NCBI GenBank assembly: GCA_035702665.1
Contig: DASSQD010000047.1
Span: 101-64,100, forward strand
Source: Burkholderiales bacterium
GTDB taxonomy: Bacteria > Pseudomonadota > Gammaproteobacteria > Burkholderiales > SG8-39
Reading direction: 5' to 3'
Length of the DNA stretch: 64,000 nt
Shown here: piece after piece, positions 39,602-56,564 of the stretch
How the letters are laid out: each line of letters starts with the position of its first letter
How positions within the stretch are numbered: the stretch's first letter is position 1
Position numbers and translations under genes: made by a program
Notes under the pieces: generated by a model
Seen by the model: only the letters and a program-made list of their open reading frames with translations
Told to the model about the DNA's origin: nothing
Database searches by the model: none

Positions 39602-41248
39602 ATGATCACAGGCGCGCAAGCGGTCGTCGATTGCCTCAAGCGCGAGGGCATCGACCACGTGTTCGGCATCCCGGGCACGATGAACCTGCCGATCCTCGAC
39701 GTGCTGCGCGCGACGCCCGAGGTCCGCTTCGTCCTCACCCGCCACGAGCAGGGCGCCGCGTTCATGGCCTACGGCTACGCGCGCTCGCTGCATCGGCCCG
39801 CGGTCGTCACGGCCACCGAGGGGCCGGGCGTCACGAACCTGGTGACGGGCATCGGCGCCGCGTGGAAGGGCTACGTCCCGGTCATCAGCATCAGCGGCGC
39901 GCAGGACCTGTTCGTGCGCGAGAAGGATGCGAGCCAGGACATCGACCAGGTGACCCTGCATCGCTCGATCACGAAGTGGGCCTACTCGGTCCCCTCGGTC
40001 GGCAAGATCCAGGAAGCGGTGCGGCGCGCGTTCCGCGTCGCCCTGGCCGAGCCGCTCGGTCCGGTGCACATCGACGTCTCGCGGGACATCCTCCTGCAGC
40101 AGACCGAGCCCGAGGTGATCCCGCCGGAGGCGTACCGGCCTGCCTCGCGGCCGGCTTGCGCAGCGCACGAGCTCGACCGCGCCGCCGCGCTGATCGCAAA
40201 CGCCGAGCGGCCCATCCTGCTCGCCGGCGGCGGCGTGCTGCGCGAAGGCGCGCTCGCGGCGTTGCAGCGACTCGCCGAGTCGACCGGAATCCCGGTCGCG
40301 ACGCTCCAATACCACCCGGACGCGTTTCCGACGAGCCACGCGCTCTCTCTCGGACCGCTCGGCCGCAACGGTTATTCGAGCGCGAACCGCGCAATGCCCG
40401 AGGCCGACGTCGTCGTCGCCCTGGGCGCGCACATCGACACGTTCTCGACGAACTTCAAATACGGAATCATCAGCAAGCACGCGAAGCTCATCCATCACAG
40501 CCCGGTGGCGACGGATATCGGCGTGGTTTTTCCGGTGACGCAGGCGGTCGCCGGGTCCACGGCGAGCTTCATCGAAGGACTCACCGAGCGCCTCGGCCGG
40601 GCCAAGAAGAAATGGCAATGGGCGGACGTCGCCAGGCTGCGCTCAGACTGGGACGCCGAGCGCAAGAAGCTGCTCGATCGCAGGCGCACGCCCATCCTGC
40701 CGCCGGTCGCCGCGGCAGCGGTGCGCGAGGCTTTGCCTGAGGACGGCATCGTGATCGTCGACGCGGGCAACGCCGGCAAGCACATGCGCGTCTTCATGGA
40801 CACGTTCCGGCCCGACACCTATATGTATACCGATGATTGGGGATCGGTCGGCGCGGCCTTCCCGATCGCGATGGGGGCGAAGCTCGCGCGGCCGAAGCAG
40901 CCCGTGGTCGCCGCGATCGGCGACATGGGCATGATGTGCAACCTCGGCGAGCTGGAGACCGCGGTACGAGAGCGCATCCCGGTGGTGTGCGTCGTGTTCA
41001 ACGACCTCGGCCTCGGCAACGAGCGCGCCTTCCAGAAGGAGCTCTACGGCGGCCGTACCTTCGCGGTGGACTACGGTGACGTCGACTTCGCCGCGCTCGC
41101 GCGCGTGTTCGGGGCCTTCGGCGAGCGCGTGACCGAGCCATCCGAAGTTCTGCCCGCGGTAAAGCGGGCGCTCGACAGCGGCCGTCCCGCGGTCGTCGAC
41201 GTCGTGATCGACAAGGACACTCACGCCGCGGTGGTGCACAAGGCCTAG
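39602..41248 (+). CDS. ThDP-dependent enzyme (acetolactate synthase/Xsc-like family)
   Basis: FGIPG, RHEQGAAFMA, GPGVTN, GPLG.NG, ThDP motif GDMG...N; RBS AGGAG. Confidence 0.9.
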   Translation: MITGAQAVVDCLKREGIDHVFGIPGTMNLPILDVLRATPEVRFVLTRHEQGAAFMAYGYARSLHRPAVVTATEGPGVTNLVTGIGAAWKGYVPVISISGAQDLFVREKDASQDIDQVTLHRSITKWAYSVPSVGKIQEAVRRAFRVALAEPLGPVHIDVSRDILLQQTEPEVIPPEAYRPASRPACAAHELDRAAALIANAERPILLAGGGVLREGALAALQRLAESTGIPVATLQYHPDAFPTSHALSLGPLGRNGYSSANRAMPEADVVVALGAHIDTFSTNFKYGIISKHAKLIHHSPVATDIGVVFPVTQAVAGSTASFIEGLTERLGRAKKKWQWADVARLRSDWDAERKKLLDRRRTPILPPVAAAAVREALPEDGIVIVDAGNAGKHMRVFMDTFRPDTYMYTDDWGSVGAAFPIAMGAKLARPKQPVVAAIGDMGMMCNLGELETAVRERIPVVCVVFNDLGLGNERAFQKELYGGRTFAVDYGDVDFAALARVFGAFGERVTEPSEVLPAVKRALDSGRPAVVDVVIDKDTHAAVVHKA

Positions 41249-42162
41249 GTTTTGCCTCCTCCGGCGACCATCCGCCGGAAATGCGCTTCCATCCGCGCCG
41301 CATCCGGCTTGACGCCGGTGAAGAGCTCGAACGCTTCGACCGCCTGCCACACCGCCATTCCGCCGCCGTCCAGAGTGCGGCAACCCCGCTCGCGGGCGGC
41401 GCGCAGCAGCTCCGTCTCGAGCGGGACATAGACGACCTCGGCGAGCCACATTTCCGGTCGAAGCAAGGACGGATCGAAAGGGAGCCCCGGGTGGCCCGCC
41501 ATTCCCGTGGGAGTGGCGTGGACCACGCCGTCCGCCCGTTTTGCTATGGGTGCGATCTGCGTGGCGGAAGCGAGAACCCGGCCCGGGAACCGCTTGGACA
41601 TTCTTTGAGTCAGCGCCTTTGCCCGTTCATCGTCGCGGTCGACGATGAACAGGCGCTCGGTTCCCGAAGCGAGGAGCGCATACGCCACGGCCGCCCCTGC
41701 GCCGCCGGCGCCGATCAGGACCACGGTCTGCTTCGAGACATCCGCGAGCTTCTCGCGAAACGGAATCAGGAACCCAGCGCAATCGGTGTTGAACCCCTTG
41801 CGCCTGCCGTTTCGAAATACCACGGTGTTCACCGCATCGATCGCCAGGGCGTCGTCGGAGAGCTCGCTGAGCAGCGGCAGCACCGCCTGCTTGCACGGGT
41901 ACGTAATGTTGAGGCCGTCGAATCCCATCCCTTCCGCCGATTCGATGAGGCGTGGCAGGTCGGCGACCTTGCGCCCGTCTTGGGCGAGATCGATCAGCTC
42001 GTAGTGCAGCGTGAACCCGCAATGCCGCGCCTCCGCCTCATGCAGCGCGGGAGAACGCGATCCTTGAATTCCCTCGCCGATCAGGCCGACCAGGAACTTG
42101 GTCTTCTCGCGGCTCGGGGCCGGAGCGCTGACGCCTCCGTTCTGGCCTTCCGTCTGCGTCAT
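41245..42162 (-). CDS. Shikimate/quinate dehydrogenase (AroE superfamily, catabolic type)
   Basis: GLIG...SRSPALH, GLNITYPCKQ, AVNTV, NTD, GAGGAG, ATPTGM, YVPLET, DGGGM..Q. Confidence 0.93.
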   Translation of the reverse strand: MTQTEGQNGGVSAPAPSREKTKFLVGLIGEGIQGSRSPALHEAEARHCGFTLHYELIDLAQDGRKVADLPRLIESAEGMGFDGLNITYPCKQAVLPLLSELSDDALAIDAVNTVVFRNGRRKGFNTDCAGFLIPFREKLADVSKQTVVLIGAGGAGAAVAYALLASGTERLFIVDRDDERAKALTQRMSKRFPGRVLASATQIAPIAKRADGVVHATPTGMAGHPGLPFDPSLLRPEMWLAEVVYVPLETELLRAARERGCRTLDGGGMAVWQAVEAFELFTGVKPDAARMEAHFRRMVAGGGKT

Positions 42163-42178
42163 TCGCTCTTCGGCTCGA

Positions 42179-43072
42179 TCAGGAACGATGCGGTGCGGGT
42201 ATGGTAAGCCCTGGCGGAGTGCCGGTCACGTTCAGGGTCAGCGCGCGATCGCCGGACGCGTTCAGGAAATTGTCGGTCGCTCTGAGGGCCAGCTTGACGT
42301 ACTCCTCGACACCCAGGAGCTTCGATAGAAAGGCCCGGGGGATCTCCAGCGCGCACGGGATCGTCGGCGGGAGACGCGCCAGGATCTCGCGAACGGGAAG
42401 ACCGCCTTCCCCGGGAAACAGTCGTGCAAAGCGCGCGGCGTGGATGACCTCTTCCTTTGTCGCAGGCGCCTGCGCGGGCGCATCGCAGACCTGGGCGTAG
42501 CGGAACCACTCGCGCGGCAGCTTCCCGAGGTCCTCGAGGCTCGAGCCGGAGCGCGCGAAATGCAGCGTATCGACGAGCACGCCCGCGTTGGGCTGACCCG
42601 CCGCGCGCAGCATGCTGGCCGCCGCGGCAAGGTCCGGGGTTTCCGTCCACGACACGAACTCGAGATCGATCCCCAGACCCAACGGCCGGGCGAGCTCGCA
42701 CAGCGCACAGAAGCGCTCGAGGGCGCGGGCGCGGTCGGGGTCCGGGAGCTGCGTCAGAACGTGGGAAGCTCCGAGCTCGGCGCCGGCTTCGAGGATGGGC
42801 GCATAGCTACGTGCGTCCCTGTCCGGCCCCATCCGCGCGAGCTCGATGTCCAGAACGGCGACCCCGCTGTCGGCCAGCCGCGCCTTGGTCTCCGCCATCA
42901 ACACGCGATCCTCGGCGAGCGCGTAGAGCGGCTCGTCCGGCGTCACCCGGTTCAGGCGCAGCCCGACGTACTTGTAGCCCGCTCGCGCCGCGACTTCGAC
43001 CAGCCGCGGAGGAGAAAGCGACAGCGCGGTGAGGTGAGCGAGCGAGAACTCGCAGGGACGTTCGCGATTCAC
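42179..43072 (-). CDS. Sugar-phosphate isomerase/epimerase TIM-barrel protein (AP endonuclease 2 / IolE-like fold)
   Basis: GTGA overlap with upstream ThDP gene; SLAHLT, LEF, VD.LH, QVCD, R.FPGEG, LEIP. Confidence 0.88.
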   Translation of the reverse strand: MNRERPCEFSLAHLTALSLSPPRLVEVAARAGYKYVGLRLNRVTPDEPLYALAEDRVLMAETKARLADSGVAVLDIELARMGPDRDARSYAPILEAGAELGASHVLTQLPDPDRARALERFCALCELARPLGLGIDLEFVSWTETPDLAAAASMLRAAGQPNAGVLVDTLHFARSGSSLEDLGKLPREWFRYAQVCDAPAQAPATKEEVIHAARFARLFPGEGGLPVREILARLPPTIPCALEIPRAFLSKLLGVEEYVKLALRATDNFLNASGDRALTLNVTGTPPGLTIPAPHRS

Positions 43073-44838
43073 TTGGCCGTCGCGGTGCCCACGTGGTGAA
43101 CCTTCCTGCCGGGCGTGTAGATGTCCATGATGTTCCAGTGCCCCGCGGTCGGAACCGGCTCGTTTTGCATCACCACGTCGATCACGCACGGCCGGCCGGA
43201 CCGGATCGCCCGCTCCAGCGCCGGCTTGAACTCCCGGGCGCTCCGGATCTTCACCCCTTCGATGCCGTAAGCCTGCGCGATCGCCGCGTAGTCGGGCGAG
43301 TAGGGCTTGCCGCTCTTCTCGAAGACCGTGCCGTAGGTCGTGCCGAAATGCGCCTTCTCGAGTCCCGCGATGGTCCCGAAAGCGCAGTTGTTCATGATGA
43401 CCCAGACGACCGCGATGTCCTCCTCGAACGCCGTCGCGAGCAACGACGGGTTCTGGCCGAAGCCCCCGTCGCCGACGAGAGCGACCACTGTGCGGTGGGG
43501 GCACGCGAGCTTCGCGCCGAGCGCCGCGGGCGCGCCGAACCCCATCGTGGCGTAGCCGCCGGGCGTGAGGATGCCGCCCGGCTCGTAGACGGGGAACTGC
43601 TGTCCGACGCCGTTCTTGTTCCAGCCGACGTCGGTGGTGATGAGCGCGTTGCGCGGCAGCGCCTCGCGCACGTCGGCGAGGATCCGCTCCGGGCGCATGG
43701 GGTAGTCGTCGCTCTGCGCGTGCGCGCGGTTGCCCGCGAGGAAGAGCGCGCGCGCCGCGGCGATCTCGCCCTGGCGCTCCGGTCGCCGGATCCCTTCAGG
43801 GAGCAACGAGCGGGCAACGCGGTTGAGCGCCGTCAGCGCCTGCTTCAGGTCGGCGACGGCGCCGATCTCGACCGGGAAGTTGCGCCCGATCTCGGCCGGG
43901 TCGATATCGATGTGCATCAGCCGCGTCGGCGGGAAGTTGAACGTGTACTCGGGCTCCCAGGAGCTGCAGTCGGCCTCGGAGAAGCGCGTTCCCAGGCCCA
44001 GGATCCAGTCGGCGGCGCGGCATTGGTCGTTGATGAATCGTGTGCCCCAGAAGCCCGTCATACCGAGCACGAACGGGTGGTCGTCCGGCAGCGCGCCCTT
44101 GCCCATCAAGGTGTGCGCGACCGGTATCTGCAGGTGGTCGACGAGCTCGCGGAGCCCGGCTGCGGCGTCGGCGAGCAGCACGCCGCCGCCGACGTAGAGC
44201 AGCGGGCGGTTGGCCGCGACGAGCCTGCGCACGATTTCGGCCGCAGTGTCTTCATCCAGCGCGGGCTTCCGCAGGGTCTTCACGTTGGCCGCCAGGCGCT
44301 CGAACAGGGCGACATCGACTTCGTTGGAAAAGACGTCCATGGGCACGTCGACGAGCACGGGGCCCGGCCTGCCGCTTTCGGCGAGCGCGAACGCCTTCTC
44401 GATGACTTCCGGGAAGAGATCCGGGCGGTCCACCCGCCAGGCGCGCTTCACGAAGGGCCTGTAGATCTCGAACTGCGATGCGTCCGCGTGGAGGTTCACC
44501 TCCTGGTGCGGATGCTTGCCGTGATAGTGGGTGGGCACGTCTCCGGCGATGACGACCATCGGCACCGAGTCGAGGGAGGCGTTCGCCACGCCCGTTGCGG
44601 CGTTCGTCAGACCGGGACCGAGATGCGAGAGCACCACCGCGGCCCGCTTCTTCGCCCTGGCGTAGCCGTCGGCCATGTGGGCCGCGATCTGCTCGTGCCG
44701 CACTCCGACGAACCGGACCTTGCTTCGGGACATTTCGGCGAGCACCGCGATATTGGTGTGCCCGCACAGGCCGAAGACGTGCTCGACGCCGCGGGATTCC
44801 AGGTACCTCACCAGTTGGCGGGCGACGAGTTCCTTCAT
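43069..44838 (-). CDS. ThDP-dependent enzyme (GLCGHT type)
   Basis: VFGLCGHTN, RHEQIAAH, GPGLTN, HPHQEVN, TDVG, GDGG...NN; RBS GGAGG. Confidence 0.92.
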   Translation of the reverse strand: MKELVARQLVRYLESRGVEHVFGLCGHTNIAVLAEMSRSKVRFVGVRHEQIAAHMADGYARAKKRAAVVLSHLGPGLTNAATGVANASLDSVPMVVIAGDVPTHYHGKHPHQEVNLHADASQFEIYRPFVKRAWRVDRPDLFPEVIEKAFALAESGRPGPVLVDVPMDVFSNEVDVALFERLAANVKTLRKPALDEDTAAEIVRRLVAANRPLLYVGGGVLLADAAAGLRELVDHLQIPVAHTLMGKGALPDDHPFVLGMTGFWGTRFINDQCRAADWILGLGTRFSEADCSSWEPEYTFNFPPTRLMHIDIDPAEIGRNFPVEIGAVADLKQALTALNRVARSLLPEGIRRPERQGEIAAARALFLAGNRAHAQSDDYPMRPERILADVREALPRNALITTDVGWNKNGVGQQFPVYEPGGILTPGGYATMGFGAPAALGAKLACPHRTVVALVGDGGFGQNPSLLATAFEEDIAVVWVIMNNCAFGTIAGLEKAHFGTTYGTVFEKSGKPYSPDYAAIAQAYGIEGVKIRSAREFKPALERAIRSGRPCVIDVVMQNEPVPTAGHWNIMDIYTPGRKVHHVGTATAK

Positions 44839-44851
44839 CGGCGCCTCCGGC

Positions 44852-46285
44852 TCACGCCGCCACCGGCGCGGCGTCGGACTCGAGCGCGGCGTCGTAGAAC
44901 TCGCCGAAAAGCTCCTCATCCGGCGGACGGTCCTCGGGAATGGGGACCGATACCCAGGTGGTGTTGAGGTAGTGCTTGAGATGCACGTTCTCGGAAACGA
45001 CGTTTCCGCCCCACGTGCCGCAGCCCAGGCTGGAGGTCATCGGCATGCCGTTGTTGAAGGCGCCGGCGTTCGCCTTCGACTGAGGCTGGCGCACCATGAT
45101 GCGGCTCACGGGAGCCGCCAGGGCGAGGCGGTGAATGTGCTCCGGGTCGAACGAGTAGATGCCGCAGGAATGCCCCTTGCCGCCGACCTCGAAGATGGCG
45201 CGCATCATCTCCAGCGCCTGGTCGAAGCCGCTGTACCGGTATACCGCGAGGAGCGTCGTGAGCTTCTCGCTCGAGAAAGGATGCTGACTGCCGATCGCGT
45301 CGCCGGGGACGACGATGAACTTGCGATCCGGGGGGATGGCGAAGCCCGCGGCCGCCGCGAGCTTCTGGGGCGCGACCGCCACGGTATCCGGAAGGCGGTG
45401 GCCATCCCCGTCCCACATGACGCGGCGAAGCGCCGCCTTTTCCGACTCGGAGGCGAGGTAGCCGCCCTCGCGCTGCAATTGCGCGACGAACCGGTCGAAG
45501 ATGCCCGCCTCGATGAGCAGGTTGCCGTCGGCGGAGCAGCCCGAACCGAAGTCCGAGGTCTTGCTCAGCCGGGTGTTGCGCGCCGCTTCCTCGATGTCCG
45601 CGGTCTCGTCGATGATCATCGTCGAGTTGCCCGCGCCCACGCCGTAGGCGGGCGTGCCCGAGCTGTAGGCGGCGCGCACCATCGCCTGACCTCCCGTAGC
45701 GAGGACGAGGTCCGCCCTCGCCATGAGCGCCTGCGACATCGGAATGTTCACGCGGGTCAGGCACTGCAGCATGTCGGGCGGCGCTCCCGCGCGCTCGAGC
45801 GCCTCGCGCATCAGCCTCACGGTCTCGAACGACGTCTTTCTCGAGCGCGGGTGCGGCGAGAATATGACGACATCGCGCGCCTTGATCGCGTAGATCGCGT
45901 TTCCCGCGGGGGTCAGATCGGGGTTCGTGGTGGGCACGATGCAGGCAACGATGCCCGCCGGCTTGCCGTACTTCACGAGCCCCTTCTCGGGCAGCTGCTC
46001 GATGATCCCTACGCTCCTTTGGCGCAGGGCGTCCCGCAGCACGCCGCGGATCTTCAGGCGCTTTCCCATGCGGCTCTCGGCGTCGCCCAGCCCGCTTTCG
46101 GAGATTCCCATTTCGACCAGCCGCGAGAACGTCCGCTTGTTCGCAACGGCCCAGGCGACCGCGCGGCACAAACGATCGACGTCTTCCTGGGTGAATTTTT
46201 CGGCGGCGGCCAGCGCTCTCCCCGCGCGGACGAAGGCCTCGTCGAGTTCCTGCCGCTGCTCGTCAGTGAGTCGCTTGTCGACCAT
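44852..46285 (-). CDS. CoA-acylating aldehyde dehydrogenase (SauS/AdhE-ALDH/EutE-like)
   Basis: PTTNP, SPHPR, ATGG.AMV.AAYSSGTPAYGVGAGN, catalytic GCS, EKL, GHS, LGCGTWGGN. Confidence 0.9.
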   Translation of the reverse strand: MVDKRLTDEQRQELDEAFVRAGRALAAAEKFTQEDVDRLCRAVAWAVANKRTFSRLVEMGISESGLGDAESRMGKRLKIRGVLRDALRQRSVGIIEQLPEKGLVKYGKPAGIVACIVPTTNPDLTPAGNAIYAIKARDVVIFSPHPRSRKTSFETVRLMREALERAGAPPDMLQCLTRVNIPMSQALMARADLVLATGGQAMVRAAYSSGTPAYGVGAGNSTMIIDETADIEEAARNTRLSKTSDFGSGCSADGNLLIEAGIFDRFVAQLQREGGYLASESEKAALRRVMWDGDGHRLPDTVAVAPQKLAAAAGFAIPPDRKFIVVPGDAIGSQHPFSSEKLTTLLAVYRYSGFDQALEMMRAIFEVGGKGHSCGIYSFDPEHIHRLALAAPVSRIMVRQPQSKANAGAFNNGMPMTSSLGCGTWGGNVVSENVHLKHYLNTTWVSVPIPEDRPPDEELFGEFYDAALESDAAPVAA

Positions 46286-46421
46286 GAGTGGAAACTCTCC
46301 CGGCAAAAACCCACCCCGCTCACCCAACGCACCGCAGCACGAGGTGTGCTCTCCGCCGAACGAAATCCGTCGGCGACAAAATGGTAGGTGCGCGCGTATC
46401 CTTGCGTCCATCGCCTGCGGG

Positions 46422-46443
46422 CGCTAGTGCGCGATAATCGGCC
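46422..46443. promoter_or_regulatory. Putative operator for the PcaR/PobR-type IclR regulator (copy 1)
   Basis: CGCTAGTGCGCGATAATCGGCC; CGATAATCG core resembles PcaU/PobR boxes; near-identical inverted copy at 47327-47348. Confidence 0.65.
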
Positions 46444-46481
46444 AGTGGGGAGCGCCTTTCGCGCGCTTTTTGGGAGGAGCC

Positions 46482-47249
46482 ATGGGAAAGAAACCGGCGC
46501 TGGACAAGCGCGACTGGATTGCCGGCCTTGAAAAGGGCCTGCGCATCATCGAGTCGTTCAACGACACCCATCCGCGGCTGACGCCCTCCACCGCGGCGTG
46601 GCGGACGGGGATCACGCGCACGGCAGCGCGCCGCTACCTGCGCACGCTGCACCACCTCGGCTACGTGGAGAGCAACGGCCAGATGTTCTGGCTGACCCCG
46701 CGCGTGCTCAGGCTGGGGTGGTCGTACTGCGATTCCGCGAAAGTTCCGCGCGCGGTGCAGCCCTTCCTCCAGCAAATCAGCGCCGAGCTCGACGGCGCCA
46801 GCTATTTCGCCGTGCTCGACGAGGACGACGTCGTATGCGTGGCGCGCGACGGCTCCACGCGCGTCCACAACGGTTTCGTCATAGGCGCACGCGTCTCCGC
46901 GAACATCTCGTCGGCGGGAATCGCGCTGCTGTCCTGCCTTCCTGCCCGCGAGGTGGACCGTTGGCTCGCCGGCCGCACGTTCATGCCTTATACGCCCTAC
47001 ACCGTCACGACCCACGACGGCGTGCGCGAGCTCATCAACGCCGCCCGCCGCAAGGGGTACGCACTCCTCGAGCAGCAGCTCGAGCGCAAGGTACGCGGCA
47101 TCGGCGTTCCGATCCGGACGCGCAACGCCGGAGTGGTCGGCGCGATCGGCATCAGCCTGGCGATGGAGAAAGAAACCACGGAGCACGCGGTGGCCCGGGC
47201 CCTGCCCCTCCTTCAGGAAGCCGAGTACTCGCTGCGCACCCTGCTCTAA
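46482..47249 (+). CDS. IclR-family regulator, PcaR/PcaU/PobR subfamily
   Basis: WIAGLEKGL.IIESF, TRTAARRYL.TL..LGY, LTPRVLRLG; RBS GGAGGAG. Confidence 0.92.
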   Translation: MGKKPALDKRDWIAGLEKGLRIIESFNDTHPRLTPSTAAWRTGITRTAARRYLRTLHHLGYVESNGQMFWLTPRVLRLGWSYCDSAKVPRAVQPFLQQISAELDGASYFAVLDEDDVVCVARDGSTRVHNGFVIGARVSANISSAGIALLSCLPAREVDRWLAGRTFMPYTPYTVTTHDGVRELINAARRKGYALLEQQLERKVRGIGVPIRTRNAGVVGAIGISLAMEKETTEHAVARALPLLQEAEYSLRTLL

Positions 47250-47326
47250 GGGTCCTCGCGCACTGCCGGACGCCGCGCCGCAGCGCCGGCACCCGTTCCG
47301 AAAGCGGGCGTTTATCGACCGATCTT

Positions 47327-47348
47327 GGGCGATTAACGCGCACTAGCG
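47327..47348. promoter_or_regulatory. Putative IclR operator (copy 2) upstream of the porin-TRAP operon
   Basis: Reverse complement CGCTAGTGCGCGTTAATCGCCC matches copy 1 at 20/22. Confidence 0.65.
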
Positions 47349-47438
47349 TGCTTGCGCCCATTTGGTTCCGTGGTCCCTCTAAATACCATCCGCAGTGCTC
47401 GTCGCGATTGAAAACGAGCCAACAAAGGAGGGAGCACC

Positions 47439-48596
47439 ATGAAAAGAAGCAAGATCGCGCTGGCGCTCGGCGCGCTGGCATTCACGTCGGCCGGCGTTGC
47501 CCACGCGCAGACGCTGAGCATCAGCAAGGACGGGGCCACGCTGACGGTATACGGCGACGTGGACTACTACCTGAGCTACATGACCAGCAGCTCGGGCAGC
47601 AAGTTGATCGCGCTGCAGGACGGCGCATACCTGCGCACCCGGCTGGGGTTCAAGGGCGACAAGGACCTGGGGAGCGGCTACGCCGTGAAGTTCAACGCCG
47701 AGCAGGGCCTGAACGAGACCAACGGCGCGCAGGCCGACGCGACGCGTCTCTTCGACCGCCAGCTCTGGGCGGGGGTCGCGACTCCGTTTGGCGAATTCCG
47801 CTTCGGCCGGCAGAACACGGCGATCTTCTACCGCGGCGGATACATCGACTTCACCGCGCGGACCCTGGGCTCGGTCGTGAACAATTTCGGCACGCCTTCC
47901 CGCTACGACAGCGACATCGCCTATATCTCGCCGCGCTGGGCGGGGTTCCTCGCGGAGGCGCACTATTCGATCCAGGGATCCCAGCCGCAGCACACCACCA
48001 ACCAGGCGGTGTACCAGGGAGCGCTGGACTACGAGCATGGACCCTTCCGCATCGGCTACGCGGGAATCGCGGGCAAGCCGCCCGAGGGCTCCGTGGTGGA
48101 CAAGACCGTGTCCTACAACACCTTCTACGGCAACTGGGATTACGGCAAGGGCAAGGTCTACCTCGTGTATATCCGGTCGAACAACCAGAGCACGACCGCG
48201 GGCACCGTTGGAACGCTCAACAATGGCGGCAACCCGCTCGGGACCACGGGCGCGCTGGTGACCGGCACCGACCCCGGGGCAAACACCTACTACAACATCT
48301 CCCAGGTGTCCGCCGACTACTGGATCCATCCGAAAGTGCGCATCGGCGCCCTCTACGGCAAGATCAAGGACGCCACCAACGACGTCAAGAACGCCGACGG
48401 ATGGGGCGTCGGCGCCTACTGGGACGTCACCAAGGAACTCATGGTCTACGGTCTCGGGAATTCGATCTCCAACGATCCCGGAGCGGGGTTCCGTCCGTCG
48501 GGCTCGGCCGGCCTGACCAAGACCTTCACGACGGCGGCCGACGTCAACGGCCAGCGGATCCGCATGGCCGCGGTCGGCATGGTGTACAAGTTCTGA
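47439..48596 (+). CDS. Gram-negative porin (Burkholderiales type)
   Basis: Signal peptide, TVYG.VD, RLGFKG.KDLG.G, LFDRQ.W.G, FGE.RFGRQ, C-terminal Phe. Confidence 0.93.
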   Translation: MKRSKIALALGALAFTSAGVAHAQTLSISKDGATLTVYGDVDYYLSYMTSSSGSKLIALQDGAYLRTRLGFKGDKDLGSGYAVKFNAEQGLNETNGAQADATRLFDRQLWAGVATPFGEFRFGRQNTAIFYRGGYIDFTARTLGSVVNNFGTPSRYDSDIAYISPRWAGFLAEAHYSIQGSQPQHTTNQAVYQGALDYEHGPFRIGYAGIAGKPPEGSVVDKTVSYNTFYGNWDYGKGKVYLVYIRSNNQSTTAGTVGTLNNGGNPLGTTGALVTGTDPGANTYYNISQVSADYWIHPKVRIGALYGKIKDATNDVKNADGWGVGAYWDVTKELMVYGLGNSISNDPGAGFRPSGSAGLTKTFTTAADVNGQRIRMAAVGMVYKF

Positions 48597-48723
48597 GCTT
48601 GTGAGCCGAGGGCCCGGGCGTCGGTGCGCGAAGCGGCCGACGGCCCGGTTCCGGCAGGTCCTTGGCCAGCGCGAGTCGAATGGCGGCGGGAGGCAGCTCG
48701 CAGACGGCGAGTACACTCTTTTC

Positions 48724-49314
48724 ATGAACCGAATCGTTGACGGCTTCTGTCGCGCGGTGGAGGTCTTGATCGCGGCGTTTCTGGCCGTGATGGTCGTCAT
48801 GGTGTTCGGCAATGTCGTCCTGCGCTACGGATTCAACTCCGGCATCATCGTTTCGGAAGAAGTCTCGCGCTGGCTGTTCCTGTGGGTGACCTTCCTCGGC
48901 GCGGTCGTCGCGCTCAAGGAACACGGTCACCTCGGCACCGATGCATTGATCTCTCGCCTGCCGGTCCTGGGCAAGAGGATCTGCCTCGTCCTCGGGCATC
49001 TGCTGATGCTGTACGCCACGTGGCTCGTGTTCTCCGGCGCCCTGGCGCAAGTGCGCATCAACCTCGACGTGGAAGCGCCGGTGACGGGAGCCTCGATGGC
49101 TTTCGTGTACGGCACGGGCGTCGCGTTCGCCGTGCTCGCGGCGCCGCTGCTGCTGCGCGACCTGTGGCGCATCCTCGCCGGGAAGCTTTCAGAGGCCGAC
49201 ATGGTGATGGTGAGGGGAACCGAAGAGAAGGGCGAGGTCGACGCTCTGCAATCCAAGCCGGCCGAAGAGAAGACCGCAGATTCGGATTCTCGCGCCCGCC
49301 AGGAACCGAAATGA
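48724..49314 (+). CDS. dctQ: TRAP transporter small permease
   Basis: NVVLRYGFNSG..VSEEVSR.LF.W..FLGA; 4 TM. Confidence 0.9.
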   Translation: MNRIVDGFCRAVEVLIAAFLAVMVVMVFGNVVLRYGFNSGIIVSEEVSRWLFLWVTFLGAVVALKEHGHLGTDALISRLPVLGKRICLVLGHLLMLYATWLVFSGALAQVRINLDVEAPVTGASMAFVYGTGVAFAVLAAPLLLRDLWRILAGKLSEADMVMVRGTEEKGEVDALQSKPAEEKTADSDSRARQEPK

Positions 49315-50591
49315 CCATCCTCGTCTTTCTCGGCTCCCTGCTCGGCGCCATGGCGCTCGGGATCCCGATCGCTTATGCGCTGCTGGTGAGCGGCATGGCG
49401 CTGATGTGGCATCTGCACCTATTCGACGCCCAGATCCTGGCGCAGAACCTGATCGAGGGCGCCAACAGCTTCCCGCTGCTGGCAGTGCCGTTCTTCCTGC
49501 TGGCCGGCGAGATCATGAACGTCGGCGGCCTGTCCAAGCGCATCGTCAATCTGGCCCTGGCGCTGGTCGGCCACGTCAGGGGCGGCCTCGGCTACGTGAC
49601 GATCATTGCCGCTTGCCTGCTCGCGTCCTTGTCGGGCTCCGCGGTCGCCGACGCCGCGGCGCTCACCGCGCTCCTGCTGCCGATGATGGTCAAAGCGGGC
49701 CACGACAAGGCCAGCTCCGCCGGCTTGATCGCGGCCGGCGGCATCATCGCGCCTATCATCCCCCCGTCGATCGGCTTCGTGATCTTCGGCGTCGCCGCCA
49801 ATGTATCGATCACCAAGCTGTTCCTGGCCGGCATCGTCCCGGGCCTGCTGATCGGCGGCGCACTCTGGGCAACCTGGTGGTGGATCAGCCGGCGCGAGCG
49901 CATCCCGGTGCCGCCGCGCAAGTCGCTCGCCGAGGTGATGCGGGCGCTGCGCGAATCCGCCTGGGCGATGGTGCTGCCGCTGATCATCCTCGTCGGCCTG
50001 CGCTTCGGCGTGTTCACGCCCACGGAAGCGGCGGTGGTCGCGGCGGTGTACGCGCTGTTCGTCGCCACGGTGGTCTACCGCGAGCTCAAGTTCTCCGACG
50101 CCTACAGGGTATTCGTGGGCGCGGCCAAGACCACCGCGGTCATCATGTTCCTGGTCGCGGCGGCGCTGGTCTCGTCCTGGCTCATCACCGTGGCGCAGAT
50201 TCCTCAGCAGGTGATCGCGCTGCTCGAGCCTTTCATGGGCAACCAGATGCTGCTGATGATCGCAATCATGGTGCTGGTGATGGCGGTGGGCACGGCGATG
50301 GACATGACGCCGACCATCCTGATCCTGACCCCGGTGCTGATGCCGGTGGTCAAGGCCGCGGGCATCGACCCTGTGTATTTCGGCGTGCTGTTCATCATCA
50401 ACAACGCCATCGGCCTCATCACGCCGCCGGTGGGCACCGTGCTCAACACCGTGGCCGGCGTCGGCCGCATCAAGATGGACCTGGTCACGCGCGGCATGCT
50501 GCCGTTCATGTGGGCGGAGTTCGCGATGATGTTTCTGATGGTGCTGTTTCCGCAGCTCGTCACCGTGCCGGCCAGGTGGTTCACGGGCTGA
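49311..50591 (+). CDS. dctM: TRAP transporter large permease
   Basis: LAVPFF.LAGEIM..GG, SGSAVAD, IIPPS, TPTEA, ITPPVG. Confidence 0.95.
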   Translation: MTILVFLGSLLGAMALGIPIAYALLVSGMALMWHLHLFDAQILAQNLIEGANSFPLLAVPFFLLAGEIMNVGGLSKRIVNLALALVGHVRGGLGYVTIIAACLLASLSGSAVADAAALTALLLPMMVKAGHDKASSAGLIAAGGIIAPIIPPSIGFVIFGVAANVSITKLFLAGIVPGLLIGGALWATWWWISRRERIPVPPRKSLAEVMRALRESAWAMVLPLIILVGLRFGVFTPTEAAVVAAVYALFVATVVYRELKFSDAYRVFVGAAKTTAVIMFLVAAALVSSWLITVAQIPQQVIALLEPFMGNQMLLMIAIMVLVMAVGTAMDMTPTILILTPVLMPVVKAAGIDPVYFGVLFIINNAIGLITPPVGTVLNTVAGVGRIKMDLVTRGMLPFMWAEFAMMFLMVLFPQLVTVPARWFTG

Positions 50592-50603
50592 GAGGAGAAC
50601 AAG

Positions 50604-51608
50604 ATGAAAAAGCGTTCCGCATTCACTGCCTGTCTTGCGGCATTGCTCGCGTGGGTCCCCGTTCATGCGCAGGAGCCGCGCACGATCCGCTTCGGCCACC
50701 TCAACAACCCCGATCACCCGATCAGCCTCGGGGTGAAGCGCTTCGCCGAGCTGGTGGCGGCCAGGAGCGGCGGCAAGCTGGTGGTGCAGGAGTTCCCGGC
50801 CAGCGCGCTCGGCAACGAGCTGCAGCAGCAATCGGCGCTGCAGGGCGGCATCCAGGAAATGACGGCGCCTGCGCCGTCCTCGCTTGCGGGCATCGTGAAG
50901 GAGTTCGGTCTGCTGGACTTTCCCTTTGTCGTGAGCACCCCGCAGCAGGCCGATGCCCTGACCGACGGCCAGGTGGGCAAGCTCCTCTTCGCCAAGCTGC
51001 CGGAGAAGGGCCTTGTCGGGCTCGCGTTCTGGGACCTGGGATTCCGCAACGTCACCAACAGCAAACGCCCGATTGCCCGAGTGGAGGACTTCGAGGGCCT
51101 CAAGCTGCGCGTGATCCCCAACCCGGTGTTCCTGGAGACCTTCAAGACCTTCAAGGCGAACCCGGTGCCGATGCCCTTCGCCGAGCTCTATTCGGCCCTC
51201 GAGACTCGCGCAGTGGACGGGCAGGAAAATCCGTTCGCGGTGATCCTTTCGAACAAGATATTCGAGGTGCAGAAGTTCCTGAGCGTCACCAACCACGTCT
51301 ACACCGCCAATACCATCCTGGTCAGCAAGGTCTTCTGGGACCGCTGCTCGCCTGCCGAGCAGAAGCTTCTGCAGGAGGCGGCGCTCGAGGCGCGCGATTA
51401 CGAGCGCAAGCTCAGCCGCGAGGCGGCGCAGAAGGCGCTCGGAGAGCTCAAGGCCAAGGGCATGCAGGTGAACGAGGTCGCGCCCGCGGAGATCGCGCGC
51501 ATGCGCGAGATGGTCAGGCCCGTCTACGACAAGTTCACCGCCGCATACGACCCCGCGGTGGTGAAGGCGTTCCGCGCCGAGCTCGACAGAATCCGGGCGC
51601 AGAACTAG
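50604..51608 (+). CDS. dctP: TRAP substrate-binding protein (copy 1)
   Basis: Signal peptide, GFRNVTN, GLKLRV, VDGQENP. Confidence 0.93.
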   Translation: MKKRSAFTACLAALLAWVPVHAQEPRTIRFGHLNNPDHPISLGVKRFAELVAARSGGKLVVQEFPASALGNELQQQSALQGGIQEMTAPAPSSLAGIVKEFGLLDFPFVVSTPQQADALTDGQVGKLLFAKLPEKGLVGLAFWDLGFRNVTNSKRPIARVEDFEGLKLRVIPNPVFLETFKTFKANPVPMPFAELYSALETRAVDGQENPFAVILSNKIFEVQKFLSVTNHVYTANTILVSKVFWDRCSPAEQKLLQEAALEARDYERKLSREAAQKALGELKAKGMQVNEVAPAEIARMREMVRPVYDKFTAAYDPAVVKAFRAELDRIRAQN

Positions 51609-51643
51609 ACGGGTTGAATTCTTTCCACTAAGAGGAGAAGCGT

Positions 51644-52633
51644 ATGAAACGGCAATCCGTGGTCATTGCATGCCTTGCGGCGCTGCTCGCGTGGGCGCCG
51701 GCGCAGGCGCAGGAGTTCAAGTTCGCGACGCAGAACCCCAAGGGTCATCCGCTCGTGACGGGAATGGAGAAATTCGCCGAGATCGTTGCCGCCAGGAGCG
51801 GCGGCAAGATGAAGGTCGATCTGTTCCCGGGCGGCGTGCTGGGCAGCGATCAGGCCAACGTTTCGGCGCTGCAGGGCGGAACGCTCGATATGGTGGTGCT
51901 GAACTCGGGCATCCTTGCCTCGCAAGTGAAGGAATTCGGGATCTACGACTTCCCCTTCATGTTCGCCAATTCGAAGGAGGCGGATGCGGTCGTCGACGGG
52001 CCCTTCGGCAAGATGATGCACGCGAAGCTCGAAGCCAAGGGAATCGTGGGCCTCGCCTATTGGGAACTGGGCTTTCGCGACATCACCAACAGCAGGCGCC
52101 CGATCAACAAGGTCGAGGACATCGCCGGCCTGAAGCTGCGGGTGATTCCCAACGCGATCAACGTCGACTGGGTCAAGGCGCTCGGCGCCAATCCGACGCC
52201 GCTGCCCTTCCCCGAGGTCTACGCGGCGCTCGACCAGAAAGCGATCGACGGACAGGAGAACCCGCCGACGGTCATCAGCGCCAACAAGTTCTACGAGGTG
52301 CAAAAGTACATCGTGCTGAGTCACCACCAGTACAACCCGCAATCATTGATCTTCAGCAAGAAGGTCTGGGACACGCTTAGCGCTGCGGACAGGAAGATCC
52401 TGGCCGATGCCGCGGTCGAAGCCTCCAAGTATCAGCGCCAGGTCGCGCGCGAGGCGGCGGGTACCGCCATGGAGAACCTGAAGAAGAACGGCATGCAGGT
52501 CACCGAGCTCTCGGCGGCCGAGCTCGCCAAGTTTCGCGACGCAATGAAACCCGTGATCGCGAAGCACTCGGAGGTCGTGGGCCCCGAGACCGTCGCCGCC
52601 ATGCAGGCCGAGCTCGCCAAGCTGCGCAAGTAG
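51644..52633 (+). CDS. dctP: TRAP substrate-binding protein (copy 2)
   Basis: Signal peptide, GFRDITN, GLKLRV, IDGQENP. Confidence 0.93.
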   Translation: MKRQSVVIACLAALLAWAPAQAQEFKFATQNPKGHPLVTGMEKFAEIVAARSGGKMKVDLFPGGVLGSDQANVSALQGGTLDMVVLNSGILASQVKEFGIYDFPFMFANSKEADAVVDGPFGKMMHAKLEAKGIVGLAYWELGFRDITNSRRPINKVEDIAGLKLRVIPNAINVDWVKALGANPTPLPFPEVYAALDQKAIDGQENPPTVISANKFYEVQKYIVLSHHQYNPQSLIFSKKVWDTLSAADRKILADAAVEASKYQRQVAREAAGTAMENLKKNGMQVTELSAAELAKFRDAMKPVIAKHSEVVGPETVAAMQAELAKLRK

Positions 52634-52777
52634 CCCCACCGCCGGAGGACTCATACCCCGCTGGTCTCCGTTCGGGACGGGACCAGCGAATCTGCACTGA
52701 CGGAAGCCTTCGCCGAAGCCGCAAAGACCGGCCGTGTCGTACACTTGCCGGACAACCGAGAAGCTGCGAGGGCCTCC

Positions 52778-53221
52778 ATGAAAGTCCTGGTACTGCACGG
52801 CATCAACCTCAACATGTTCGGCAAGAGGGATCCGGCCCAGTACGGGACCATCACCCTTGCCGAGATCGACGCGCGCCTCAAGGCGCTCGCGAGGGAGCTG
52901 GGCGTCGAGCTGGAGATCCTCCAGACGAACAGCGAGGCGGCCCTGTGCGAGCGCATCCACCGGGCCTACGACGAGCGGGTCGACGCGGTCCTGATCAACG
53001 CCGGCGCCTGGACGCACTACAGCTACGGCATCCGCGACGCGCTGGCGATCCTGAAAGCGCCGATCGTCGAGGTGCACATGTCGAACATCCACGCCCGCGA
53101 GGAATTCCGCCGCCATTCGGTCGTCGCGGCGATCGCGAAGGGGCAGATCTGCGGCTTCGGGGTCGACAGCTACCTGCTCGGGCTGCGCGCGGCCGTGTCG
53201 GCCGCTCACAGCGCCAAGTAG
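52778..53221 (+). CDS. aroQ: Type II 3-dehydroquinate dehydratase
   Basis: [45 protein letters not shown]. Confidence 0.95.
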
Positions 53222-53239
53222 CGCCCCACGGGACCCGCG

Positions 53240-54124
53240 ATGACCATCAGAGAACCCACCCCCGAACCCAACAACCCGCTCGGAATGGACGGCATCGAGT
53301 TCATCGAGTACGCGACCTCGCAGCCGCAGGCGCTCGGGTCGGTGCTTCAATCCATGGGCTTCGTCCCGGTCGCCCGGCACCGCTCGCGCGAGGTGACGCT
53401 GTACCGGCAGGGATCCATGAACCTCATCGTCAACGCCCATCCCGACGCGCTGCCCGGCATGAGCGCGCCCAAGGCCGCGCCGGAGCTGAAGGCGATCGCG
53501 CTGCGCGTGCGGGACGCCGGGTTCGCGTGGAAGCGGTCGCTCGACCTCGGCGCGTGGGAGATGCCGACGCGCGCCTCGGCGATGGAGCTGAACATCCCGG
53601 GTGTTCACGGGGTCGGCGACAGCCTGATCTACTTCGTCGACCGGTACCGGGATTTCTCGATCTACGACGTCGACTTCGTGCCCCTGCCCGGCGTGGAGGC
53701 GCGCCCGCTCGCGCTCGCGGGGCTGCACTACTTCGGCATCGTGCAGTCCATTCTCGGGGACCGCACCGCCGACTGGCTTCAGTTCTACGAGCAGCTGTTC
53801 GGCTTCACGGTCCTGCCCGAGGGCAAGTACTTCGGCGTCATGCCCAAAGGCACCCTGCTCGAGAGCCCCTGCCGGAAGTTCTACCTGCAGCTGGTCGAGC
53901 CGCCGCCCGGCGCCGAGGATATCCACTGGGAGGAGAGCCTCGTGCGCATCGGCCTGGGGGCCCCCGACGTGCGCGCCGCGACGCGCGTCCTCAAGGAGCG
54001 CGGCGTGGTCTTCATCGACCGAGGCTCGGTGCAGCCCAGCGAAAAAGGGGCGCTGACGCAGGTGTACCTCGGCAACGTGACGTTCGAGCTCGTCGTGAGC
54101 CATCTGAAGCCGGGCAAGCCGTGA
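53240..54124 (+). CDS. HppD-like (VOC) protein resembling the C-terminal half of QuiC1-type dehydratases
   Basis: NPLGMDGIEFIEYA, RHRSREV.LYRQG, ELNIPG..GVG.SLIYFVD; HppD iron His ligands not evident. Confidence 0.8.
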   Translation: MTIREPTPEPNNPLGMDGIEFIEYATSQPQALGSVLQSMGFVPVARHRSREVTLYRQGSMNLIVNAHPDALPGMSAPKAAPELKAIALRVRDAGFAWKRSLDLGAWEMPTRASAMELNIPGVHGVGDSLIYFVDRYRDFSIYDVDFVPLPGVEARPLALAGLHYFGIVQSILGDRTADWLQFYEQLFGFTVLPEGKYFGVMPKGTLLESPCRKFYLQLVEPPPGAEDIHWEESLVRIGLGAPDVRAATRVLKERGVVFIDRGSVQPSEKGALTQVYLGNVTFELVVSHLKPGKP

Positions 54125-55002
54125 ACCTCGAGAACTTCGGCATGGACACCATCACGCTGGCCGGCTCGCTGGAGGGGAAGCTGCGCGCGGTCCGCGAGGC
54201 CGGATTTGGACAGATCATGATTTCCGCTCACGACCTCGTCGAGCATCCTGGCGGGGAAGCCGCAGCGGCCTCGCTGGTGCGGCAGAGCGGGCTGCGAGTC
54301 ACCGGATTCCAGGTGCTGCGCGACTTCGAGGGCCTCTCCGGACACCTGCACGCCTACAAGATCGACATCGCCAAGGCCATGCTCGGCATGTGCCGCGAGC
54401 TGGGCTCCAAGCTGCTGCTGGTGTGCTCGTCGACTTCGGCGCACGCCACGGGCGACTCGGAGGTTCTCGCGCGCGACCTGCGCAAGCTCGCGATGCTCGC
54501 GGTACCCCTGGACATACGCATCGCTTACGAAGCGCTCTCCTGGGGAAAGCGCGTCAAGGAATTCCCGCAGGCCTCGGAGCTCGTCGGTGCGGCGGATTCC
54601 CCCAACCTCGGCCTCGCGCTCGATGCTTTCCACCTCCTCGCGACCAAGACCGAGCTCGACCAGCTCGATCTCGTCGATCCCCAGCAGGTGTTTCTAGTGC
54701 AGCTCTCGGATTTCATGTGGCGCGAGCTGCCCTCGATCGAGGAGCGGATCAACACCGCCAGGCACTTCCGCGTCTTTCCCGGAGAGGGGCTGCACGGCGC
54801 TCAGGTAGCCGAATTCGTCCAGAGGCTCGACGAGAAAGGCTACCGCGGAGACTACAGCTTCGAGGTATTCAACGACGACTACACCCAGCTGCCGCCCGCT
54901 GTCGTCGCCCTGCGCGCGCGGCAGTCCGCAAAGTGGATCACGGACCACGTGTCCCGCCGCAGCCTCCCCCTGCGCCGGCCCGGGCGCGAGGCGCGAGGCT
55001 AG
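54121..55002 (+). CDS. TIM-barrel 3-dehydroshikimate dehydratase-like protein (QuiC1 N-terminal-type domain)
   Basis: TITLAGSLEGKL, FQVLRDFEG, LLVCSS, YEALSWG, LDAFH, VQLSD, RHFRVFPGEG, SFEVFND. Confidence 0.85.
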   Translation: MNLENFGMDTITLAGSLEGKLRAVREAGFGQIMISAHDLVEHPGGEAAAASLVRQSGLRVTGFQVLRDFEGLSGHLHAYKIDIAKAMLGMCRELGSKLLLVCSSTSAHATGDSEVLARDLRKLAMLAVPLDIRIAYEALSWGKRVKEFPQASELVGAADSPNLGLALDAFHLLATKTELDQLDLVDPQQVFLVQLSDFMWRELPSIEERINTARHFRVFPGEGLHGAQVAEFVQRLDEKGYRGDYSFEVFNDDYTQLPPAVVALRARQSAKWITDHVSRRSLPLRRPGREARG

Positions 55003-55517
55003 AGCTCCTCGGCGTCGATCAGCACGAAGGCGATGCGGCAGCTCTCCTGTCCGCGATTGACCCAAGCGTGGCTGGTCCCGCGCTGCACCAGCACGTCGCC
55101 CGCCTCGAGGTGCACCTCCGAATCGTCGAGCAGCATGTCGATCTCGCCCGAGATCACCACGGCGTAGTCGACGCTCCTCGTACGATGCATGGTCGCGTGG
55201 CGGGGATCCGCGCGGCCGCCGGAAAGCCCCATCTCCTTCAGCATGGCCGCGTTGTCCACCGCGCCGGCTTCCGAAGCGGGAGGAAAGTCGACCACGCGGA
55301 AGACCGAGCCGCGCGGCGGCGGCGCGACGCCGATGTCGCGGTCGGCGCCGTCCTTGTTCCCCGAGTTGTCCGCAGGTGACCCGTCGGTCACCCAAAGCAG
55401 CGTCGAGGTCAGCCCGGTCGCTTTCCTCAGCTTCGCGTTGGGGGCCGCGCCGTCGATCAGCACGACCGCTTTTCCGGATGCGTCGTGGCCGGTGACCACT
55501 CGCCGCGTCGGCCGCAT
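54999..55517 (-). CDS. Cupin-domain protein
   Basis: RRVVTGHD, MHRTRSVDY, GDVLVQRGTSHAW. Confidence 0.9.
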   Translation of the reverse strand: MRPTRRVVTGHDASGKAVVLIDGAAPNAKLRKATGLTSTLLWVTDGSPADNSGNKDGADRDIGVAPPPRGSVFRVVDFPPASEAGAVDNAAMLKEMGLSGGRADPRHATMHRTRSVDYAVVISGEIDMLLDDSEVHLEAGDVLVQRGTSHAWVNRGQESCRIAFVLIDAEEL

Positions 55518-56391: not shown

Positions 56392-56564
56392 CTCGGCGCT
56401 TCTTGTCAACCGGAATCGTGCGCAGTGTAGGCAGAATTCGCACCTGCCGCAAGACGAGCGAGCGCCGCCGCGCCCCAAATCGATGCGCCGTCGGAAGCAT
56501 TCGCGCGTTGCAGCGCTGCCCACTGCGGAATCCGGCTACAATCCGAACGCGTTGAGAGGGGGCG

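Follow-up and report, generated by a model that had tools for sequence, protein, structure and literature searches.

A conserved gene cluster and a candidate oxygen-independent opening of the quinate and shikimate ring via homocitryl-CoA

Quinate and shikimate are abundant plant acids, whose textbook degradation proceeds via 3-dehydroshikimate to protocatechuate and, hence, requires aromatization and O2 for ring cleavage. Cyclohexane-1,2-dione hydrolase (abbreviated Cdh) is a thiamine diphosphate (ThDP)-dependent enzyme that hydrolyzes a cyclic 1,2-dione to an oxo-acid. For myo-inositol catabolism, a section of one account lists the enzymes IolG, IolE, IolD, and IolA (PMC9430895). Here, we describe a gene cluster at positions 41245 to 55002 of a 64,000-nucleotide stretch (the window) of a Burkholderiales bacterium of the SG8-39 lineage (assembly GCA_035702665.1, contig DASSQD010000047.1, positions 101 to 64,100, forward strand), in which quinate/shikimate genes are joined by a ThDP enzyme. 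An earlier note on this DNA had interpreted the left arm of the cluster as a ring-opening route, and this interpretation is supported by the comparison of related loci. No description of such a quinate/shikimate pathway was found in the open-access literature—an account in a subscription journal could exist—and the cluster, which is real and conserved, probably represents an undescribed oxygen-independent pathway.

The left arm combines a quinate/shikimate dehydrogenase, a triosephosphate isomerase (TIM) barrel protein termed TIM_L, the ThDP enzyme, and a CoA-acylating aldehyde dehydrogenase (ALDH). We infer every substrate and product of the route from what is observed—the gene families, their order, their linkage, and the swaps between alternative genes. 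The dehydrogenase likely converts quinate to 3-dehydroquinate and shikimate to 3-dehydroshikimate, as judged from its model match; quinate would enter directly as 3-dehydroquinate and shikimate via dehydroshikimate, with the dehydroquinase AroQ (or AroD) running as a hydratase. TIM_L would remove the 5-hydroxyl of 3-dehydroquinate—like dehydroshikimate dehydratases and IolE, yet on a substrate that cannot aromatize in that step—giving a 3,4-diketone, which the ThDP enzyme would hydrolyze to homocitrate semialdehyde in the manner of IolD and Cdh. Homocitryl-CoA would then be formed by the acylating ALDH, or elsewhere by an ALDH plus a CoA-transferase, and a lyase would split this into acetyl-CoA and 2-oxoglutarate. 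3-Dehydroquinate is a tertiary hydroxy-acid at C1, and breaking its C3–C4 bond would produce one arm of two carbons and one of three, as in the skeleton of homocitrate, which makes a homocitryl-CoA route likely. Enzymes of the citryl-CoA lyase, 3-hydroxy-3-methylglutaryl-CoA (HMG-CoA) lyase, and CitE folds cleave 3-hydroxyacyl-CoA to acetyl-CoA and a ketone, which requires a tertiary alcohol. Since dehydroquinate and homocitrate semialdehyde are isomers (C7H10O6), dehydration plus hydrolysis would be redox-neutral. We give the oxygen-independent, non-aromatic opening in this dehydratase-first form slightly better than an even chance; the net route to homocitryl-CoA, counted together with an isomerase-first variant, seems rather probable.

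This reading is carried by gene neighborhoods. Genes were called and clustered in 80 related loci, 79 of them from species-representative genomes (drawn as the best 80 of 619 confirmed stretches, a selection biased to close relatives) and one further; 46 are full length and the rest are cut by contig ends. Linkage of the ThDP and ALDH homologues to shikimate genes—whose absence the earlier note had named as grounds for refuting its idea—is found: a gene of the shikimate dehydrogenase (SDH), aroE, aroQ, or aroD type lies within about 10 kb in 51 of the 80 loci (31/46 of the full-length ones), against a background of 45 such genes among the 3442 of the host genome (1.3%). By group, this linkage is present in 43/53 loci of Pseudomonadota, 2/3 of Actinomycetota, 3/10 of Bacillota, and 3/4 of four other loci from metagenome-assembled genomes (MAGs). 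A citryl-CoA-lyase-like (CCL-like) gene occurs in 42 loci and an HMG-CoA-lyase-like (HMGL-like) gene in 16—either of them in 57, both in one. The CCL-like gene scores 430 bits on NF004864 (cut-off 261), exceeds the cut-off of PRK06224, and has the citryl-CoA lyase 6HXP as best PDB match, while the HMGL-like gene is over the cut-off of NF004283; in two distant loci, whose ThDP proteins are 43–44% identical, a CitE-like gene stands beside the ALDH gene.

The idea that an aldehyde is turned into an acyl-CoA is backed by a strict alternation of genes: an acylating ALDH is present in 50 loci and a non-acylating one in 15, never together, and a family III CoA-transferase accompanies 10 of these 15 but none of the 50. 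TIM_L is intact in 48 loci, and where it is absent, a ThuA-family gene often appears (15/32 loci without TIM_L versus 1/48 with it), which suggests a replaceable step; it usually comes with a pyrroloquinoline quinone (PQQ) dehydrogenase, and ThuA-family proteins reportedly act on 3-keto compounds. Three Bacillota loci without TIM_L carry a cupin. The genes iolB, iolC, and iolE are not among the recurring neighbors in the 80 loci. On a plasmid of Azoarcus KH32C, genes for an HppD-like protein, a TIM barrel, a CoA-transferase, a citryl-CoA lyase, the ThDP enzyme, SDH, and aroD form one run, with no ALDH gene in this stretch.

By its profile scores and its place in a tree, the ThDP enzyme belongs to a separate, unnamed family and is not IolD, Xsc, or acetohydroxyacid synthase (AHAS). 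It scores 417 bits on the AHAS large subunit model TIGR00118 (cut-off 538), with the AHAS-type GYPGG loop replaced by GLCGHT, 303 bits on the Xsc model NF005713 (cut-off 620), and 256 bits (255.8) on the IolD model TIGR04377 (cut-off 715). In a quick tree of 30 rows, which included neither Cdh nor Xsc and whose long branches make deeper joins unreliable, 21 family members form one group (SH-aLRT 94) that is distinct from two IolD sequences as well as from the other ThDP proteins of the host genome, including a GYPGG protein. Within the G-x-C-G-H-T motif, an alignment of 41 members, from which L042 and L064 were excluded, shows no variation at G22, C24, G25, H26, and T27. The corresponding loop reads IFGHGN in IolD sequences, and motif alignment places the GHT His in register with that of GFGHGN-type IolD; a His in an N-terminal G-x-x-G-H loop, as in IolD-type dione hydrolases, is present in the ThDP enzyme as compared with IolD sequences. 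Many ThDP enzymes match its AlphaFold model (pLDDT 87) about equally by Foldseek, and the TM-score of Cdh—at 0.86 the highest among the listed matches, versus 0.85 for AHAS—is weak evidence given the margin of 0.01. By analogy with the dione hydrolases, the enzyme is likely a ring-opening C–C hydrolase. The family is patchily distributed, with 2/300 genomes in a sample of the class, 6/301 in the order, and 7/31 in the genus. A paralogous ThDP family with a GICGHGNV motif (G000:C5:2832-4643, G000 being the host genome) shows 38% identity to the enzyme of the window and scores 265 bits on the IolD model; it is common in the genus and adjoins prp/aconitase-type genes. Noviherbaspirillum denitrificans (L041) has two members of the ThDP family itself (73% and 53%) in facing orientation, with TIM_R-like and HppD-like genes between them and neither an ALDH nor a lyase gene nearby.

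For TIM_L, the nearest solved structures are Lmo2234—which we take to be QuiC2, although a gene listing for lmo2234 did not confirm this—IolI, and QuiC1. Profile searches rank Lmo2234 (E 3e-22) before IolI (E 1e-18), and Foldseek puts IolI first. Residues E138, D168, H171, D197, R217, and E243 are invariant in 41 sequences, and TIM_L retains the set of metal, His, and Arg positions known from dehydroshikimate dehydratases. It is likely a 3-dehydroquinate 4,5-dehydratase, or else a ketol isomerase. The ALDH falls into the acylating AdhE/EutE/SauS class by its best matches and its motifs: its best PDB matches are acetylating acetaldehyde and succinate-semialdehyde dehydrogenases, and the Cys motif and the GH[ST] His motif—presumably holding the catalytic Cys and a functional His—are present in 50/51 and 47/51 sequences, respectively. 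With 463 bits on NF047625 (cut-off 600), it is not assigned as SauS. Its predicted reaction, the conversion of the semialdehyde to homocitryl-CoA, is likely.

A cultured fermenter offers a physiological counterpart. Propionivibrio limicola reportedly forms acetate and propionate with no aromatic intermediates. The protein P0153, named at NCBI as a protein of P. limicola, is 90% identical to a P. soli protein and is encoded exactly by genome G315. There, genes for acylating ALDH, ThDP enzyme, and TIM_L lie at a contig end, two further TIM_L matches stand beside dctP genes, a CCL-like gene neighbors aroE and aroQ, with sucAB-type genes adjacent, and an HMGL-like gene follows a 2-oxoacid:ferredoxin oxidoreductase; G315 encodes the whole enzyme set of the proposed route. 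Searches of this genome for intradiol and LigB-family dioxygenases yielded no match of the former kind and, of the latter, a single short and generic one. Among 54 genomes of the genus Propionivibrio, 23 carry the ThDP gene, and its partners go along with it: TIM_L is found in 23/23 genomes with and 1/31 without it, the acylating ALDH orthologue in 21/23 versus 2/31, a lyase in 19/23 versus 3/31, and TIM_R, the TIM barrel protein of the right arm, in 17/23 versus 2/31—counts that stem from kin that are not independent and from many fragmented MAGs. Fermenters specialized in hydroaromatic compounds, including P. limicola, have long been described, as can be seen from titles in the reference entries of two papers (PMC11252210, PMC10512730). 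We lean toward a widespread, undescribed pathway that opens quinate and shikimate without oxygen or aromatization via homocitryl-CoA, that uses interchangeable modules at three steps, and that might supply the missing genes for the non-aromatic quinate fermentation of P. limicola.

Several observations weigh against this route, among them the missing lyase. The cluster of the window has no CCL-like gene, and none was found in the host genome (3.67 Mb, 95.6% complete). With no linked CCL- or HMGL-type lyase in the host locus, the complete homocitryl-CoA route is not found here and may be incomplete in this genome, where the last step would fall to a CitE-like or HMG-CoA lyase encoded outside the cluster. 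The single HMG-CoA lyase of the host (G000:C97:78888-79796) sits in a leucine-degradation-type operon and contains an in-frame TAG, which marks a pseudogene or an assembly error; the leucine-pathway enzyme is intact in relatives. The CitE-like gene is unlinked, lies beside a CoA-transferase, and is 50% identical to the CitE of the two distant loci. It is present in 6/7 genomes of the genus with the ThDP gene and also in 13/24 without it, which leaves its role as a dedicated lyase unsupported. Five of five close relatives lacking the gene in the locus gave no CCL-like gene elsewhere, apart from one weak 27% match. Its fate can be traced in close relatives: an intact CCL gene lies between the ALDH and ThDP genes in L020 and L213, whereas other loci hold remnants, L072 its first 34 codons, L021 and L215 a fused fragment, and L007 its last 12 codons. 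As the breakpoints differ and the other genes are intact, the gene may have been lost more than once, with a substitute taking over.

Further points concern chemistry and distribution. The diketone would bear a β-hydroxyl and could, on chemical grounds, lose water to give protocatechuate. Starting from a (1R) descriptor, Cahn–Ingold–Prelog reasoning would make the product (R)-homocitryl-CoA, whereas the characterized citryl-CoA lyase cleaves (S)-citryl-CoA; the (R) form fits HMGL-type folds and not the canonical (S)-citryl-CoA lyase. The fold does not fix the reaction of the ThDP enzyme, since sequence ranks AHAS and BbmA, its best PDB matches, above Cdh (E 1e-55). The isomerase IolI is no more distant from TIM_L than dehydratases are. 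In 32 of the 80 loci, TIM_L is missing, and TIM_L-like proteins (39–46%) are also found in quinate clusters where no ThDP gene adjoins (L188, L191). None of the 10 Acidobacteriota loci bears shikimate genes, and all 10 have a PQQ dehydrogenase; these loci may use another cyclitol. Finally, the QuiC1-like pair of the right arm together with extradiol-dioxygenase-like genes elsewhere makes a parallel protocatechuate route probable in the host, and G315 has the TIM_R/HppD pair as well.

How the ring is prepared for cleavage could differ from the dehydratase-first scheme. TIM_L might act as a ketol isomerase moving the carbonyl from C3 to C4, after which the ThDP enzyme would cleave the ketol like phosphoketolase or Xsc with elimination of the neighboring hydroxyl—giving the same products with no free diketone. 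This variant, which we consider unlikely, would avoid the aromatization-prone diketone and place the aldehyde on the two-carbon arm; it draws on the rank of IolI as top Foldseek and second profile match of TIM_L and on the PQQ- or Zn-type dehydrogenases, which are present in 19/32 loci without TIM_L versus 9/48 with it and could oxidize C4 directly. On the contrary, the dehydratase-type metal, His, and Arg set of TIM_L, the resemblance of the ThDP motif to dione hydrolases, and the exchange of TIM_L for ThuA, a sign of a replaceable step, speak against this variant.

A comparably small share of probability goes to a non-aromatic opening of another skeleton, such as 3,4-dioxocyclohexanecarboxylate (reduced dehydroshikimate), a 5-hydroxyl-retaining product, or another cyclitol acid in some lineages. 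The lack of shikimate genes in Acidobacteriota and in most Bacillota loci would be explained in this way, as would the stereochemical mismatch of the CCL and the adjacent occurrence of both lyases in one genome (G352). However, the neighbor clusters present in at least three loci include neither an ene-reductase nor an acyl-CoA dehydrogenase, a hydratase, or a keto-acid aldolase, and the lyases require a tertiary alcohol that is already in place.

The right arm bears on the ordinary protocatechuate branch. Its HppD-like protein and TIM_R correspond to a split QuiC1—two adjacent genes in reverse domain order, with no QuiC1-type fusion. The active-site set of QuiC1/QsuB, as given in part of one study, comprises R64, L97, E134, L136, D165, H168, Q191, S206, R210, and E239 (PMC7442255). 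TIM_R matches nine of these ten positions (including R64, E134, D165, H168, Q191, R210, and E239), with Ala in place of Ser206. With this site intact, the host is likely still able to make protocatechuate, and the pair likely keeps the ordinary branch as judged from these residues. A dedicated role of the pair in the new route was rejected, as a match of at least 55% occurs in 12 genomes of the order where the ThDP gene was not found (301 genomes, four candidates scored per genome); some pairs of the order adjoin pca- or pobA-looking genes. TIM_R carries Lys at Glu134 in 12/22 sequences from ThDP-carrying genomes, including G315, versus 0/7 from genomes without the ThDP gene, which suggests that users of the new route have modified or lost the aromatizing branch. 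Members of this Lys134 subfamily (L173:8404-9306 of G315 and 11 other loci) mostly also show His168 to Asp and Glu239 to Asp, Ala, or Asn, keep R64, D165, Q191, and R210, and are possibly a metal-free or non-catalytic form.

A check of the genome for pcaGH and ligAB, as the earlier note had suggested, gave no intradiol dioxygenase match and five LigB-family matches, one of which is a split pair that exceeds the cut-offs of models for class III extradiol dioxygenases and for gallate dioxygenase; pobA-like, LigJ-like, LigU-like, and LigI-like genes are scattered on other contigs. The claim that the locus has no pca or lig genes holds within its coordinates, yet a VOC extradiol-dioxygenase-like gene (55525-56481, minus strand), matching HpaD and catechol 2,3-dioxygenase models under cut-off, lies about 520 bp past it on the opposite strand, in addition to the gallate/protocatechuate-dioxygenase-like pair elsewhere. 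Likewise, the label "dioxygenase-free" describes the left-arm route and not the organism, whose right arm has an intact dehydroshikimate-dehydratase-like site. That quinate and shikimate are degraded via protocatechuate only—with two dehydratases, dioxygenases elsewhere, and the ThDP enzyme and ALDH as passengers whose substrate is unrelated, as it would be in a SauS/Xsc-like pairing—would agree with the QuiC1-like site of TIM_R, with the extradiol-dioxygenase-like, pobA-like, and LigJ-like genes, with SauS as best ALDH model, and with Lmo2234, taken as QuiC2, as nearest relative of TIM_L, but is improbable in view of a linkage that spans phyla in varied gene orders, the presence of the set in G315, where searches for intradiol and LigB-family dioxygenases found no ring-cleavage route, the Lys134 exchange, the unmet SauS and Xsc cut-offs, and the lack of recurring sulfonate genes near the related loci.

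As for the layout of the locus, model matches bear out the gene content that had been claimed for both arms, with the IclR gene between them, and order and orientation are confirmed for all 13 genes (Table 1). The left arm is indeed tightly spaced, with 13 bp between the ALDH and ThDP genes, −4 bp between the ThDP gene and TIM_L, and 16 bp between TIM_L and the shikimate dehydrogenase. The IclR gene and the right arm share one direction, from which only the left arm diverges; a search for a sigma-70-like promoter gave none. The IclR gene recurs in 29–32 and the TRAP genes in 35–39 of the 80 loci, and the TRAP transporter is likely a quinate/shikimate uptake system. AroQ is the sole dehydroquinase found in the host genome and may hence double for aromatic amino acid biosynthesis.

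Table 1 Genes of the cluster, with the model or structure matches that assign them.
Feature	Position	Strand	Assignment
Quinate/shikimate dehydrogenase	41245..42162	-	NF009201, 415 bits (over cut-off 235)
TIM_L, metal-dependent TIM barrel (AP_endonuc_2)	42179..43072	-	PF01261
ThDP-dependent enzyme with G-x-C-G-H-T (here GLCGHT)	43069..44838	-	Three TPP domains
CoA-acylating aldehyde dehydrogenase	44852..46285	-	Best models SauS (463 of 600 bits), AdhE, EutE
IclR regulator, PcaR/PobR type	46479..47249	+	Best model PcaR/PcaU/PobR TIGR02431, 235 bits (under cut-off 285)
Outer-membrane porin	47439..48596	+	PF13609
Tripartite ATP-independent periplasmic (TRAP) transporter, dctQ-dctM-dctP-dctP	48724..52633	+	PF04290, PF06808, PF03480 (twice)
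Type II 3-dehydroquinate dehydratase AroQ	52772..53221	+	TIGR01088, over cut-off
HppD-like protein, equivalent of the QuiC1 C-terminal domain	53240..54124	+	PF14696; covers positions 292-469 of the QuiC model
TIM_R, equivalent of the QuiC1 N-terminal dehydroshikimate-dehydratase domain	54121..55002	+	E 7e-43 to 5HMQ

Around the cluster, the VOC gene and a cupin gene (54999-55517, minus strand) converge on the right arm; as part of the pathway this pair was rejected, both occurring together in 1/80 related loci. On either side of the region lies a cupin (36482-36961 and 54999-55517), and in the L018 comparison the two are similar (52%). Another ThDP enzyme, which is unrelated and has a GIPGT motif (39602-41248, plus strand), overlaps the stop of the shikimate dehydrogenase by 4 bp and is adjoined by a CocE/NonD hydrolase; it recurs in 1/80 loci and was likewise rejected. 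Among the related loci, ThuA-family genes are found in, for example, L012, L022, L032, L036, L045-L048, L053, L058, L073, and L084. In all three Actinomycetota loci (L015, L016, L049), an ATP-citrate-lyase-like or succinyl-CoA-ligase-like gene pair adjoins the cluster. L123 (G352:C1:738000-760000) holds two tandem copies of the cluster, one with HMGL-like and CCL-like lyase genes adjacent, which hints at two stereoisomers or redundancy. The contig of L069 is labelled Bathyarchaeia, shows the cluster at 74% identity with Bacillota-like neighbors, and may be mis-binned.

The searchable literature assigns no genes to the fermenters specialized in hydroaromatic compounds. As the cluster provides four enzymes with names and a carbon path that is defined, and as some of its carriers are in culture (P. 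limicola, Azoarcus KH32C, Geobacillus), the proposal lends itself to direct testing. If true, the route would assign functions to two protein groups—a large family at present annotated as acetolactate synthase and a "citryl-CoA lyase" subfamily—and it would show homocitryl-CoA as a catabolic intermediate—a use for which no description was found in the open-access literature.

Compared with known systems, the proposed route resembles myo-inositol catabolism, where a dehydrogenase, a TIM-barrel dehydratase, and a ThDP ring hydrolase with a Gly-His motif likewise open a cyclitol without O2. However, the left-arm ThDP enzyme is only 27–29% identical to IolD (256 of 715 bits), IolB and IolC have no counterpart, the ALDH is of the AdhE/EutE/SauS class, and a citryl-CoA-type lyase would end the route. 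Like Cdh (TM-score 0.86), the ThDP enzyme would hydrolyze a cyclic 1,2-dione, yet it is 27% identical to Cdh, which ranks below AHAS by sequence, and its proposed substrate would bear a hydroxyl and a carboxylate. The entry genes are shared with the hydroaromatic pathway (QuiA/YdiB, AroQ/AroD, QuiC1/QsuB/QuiC2), of which the right arm holds the split QuiC1-like pair; that pathway has no need of a ThDP enzyme, an acylating ALDH, or an acyl-CoA lyase. In SauS/Xsc sulfoacetate metabolism, an acylating ALDH and a ThDP enzyme are paired as well, but both proteins of the cluster stay under the respective cut-offs (463 of 600 and 303 of 620 bits) and their context is quinate/shikimate, not sulfonates. 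The retro-Claisen cleavage of a 3-hydroxyacyl-CoA would be that of citryl-CoA lyase (6HXP) and of HMG-CoA and citramalyl-CoA lyases, and the last step would reverse the condensation of homocitrate synthase; unlike in those lyase systems, the lyase gene is missing from the host cluster and the substrate would be homocitryl-CoA. The enzyme chemistries are, hence, of known kinds, and the novelty would lie in combining them to degrade quinate by way of homocitryl-CoA.

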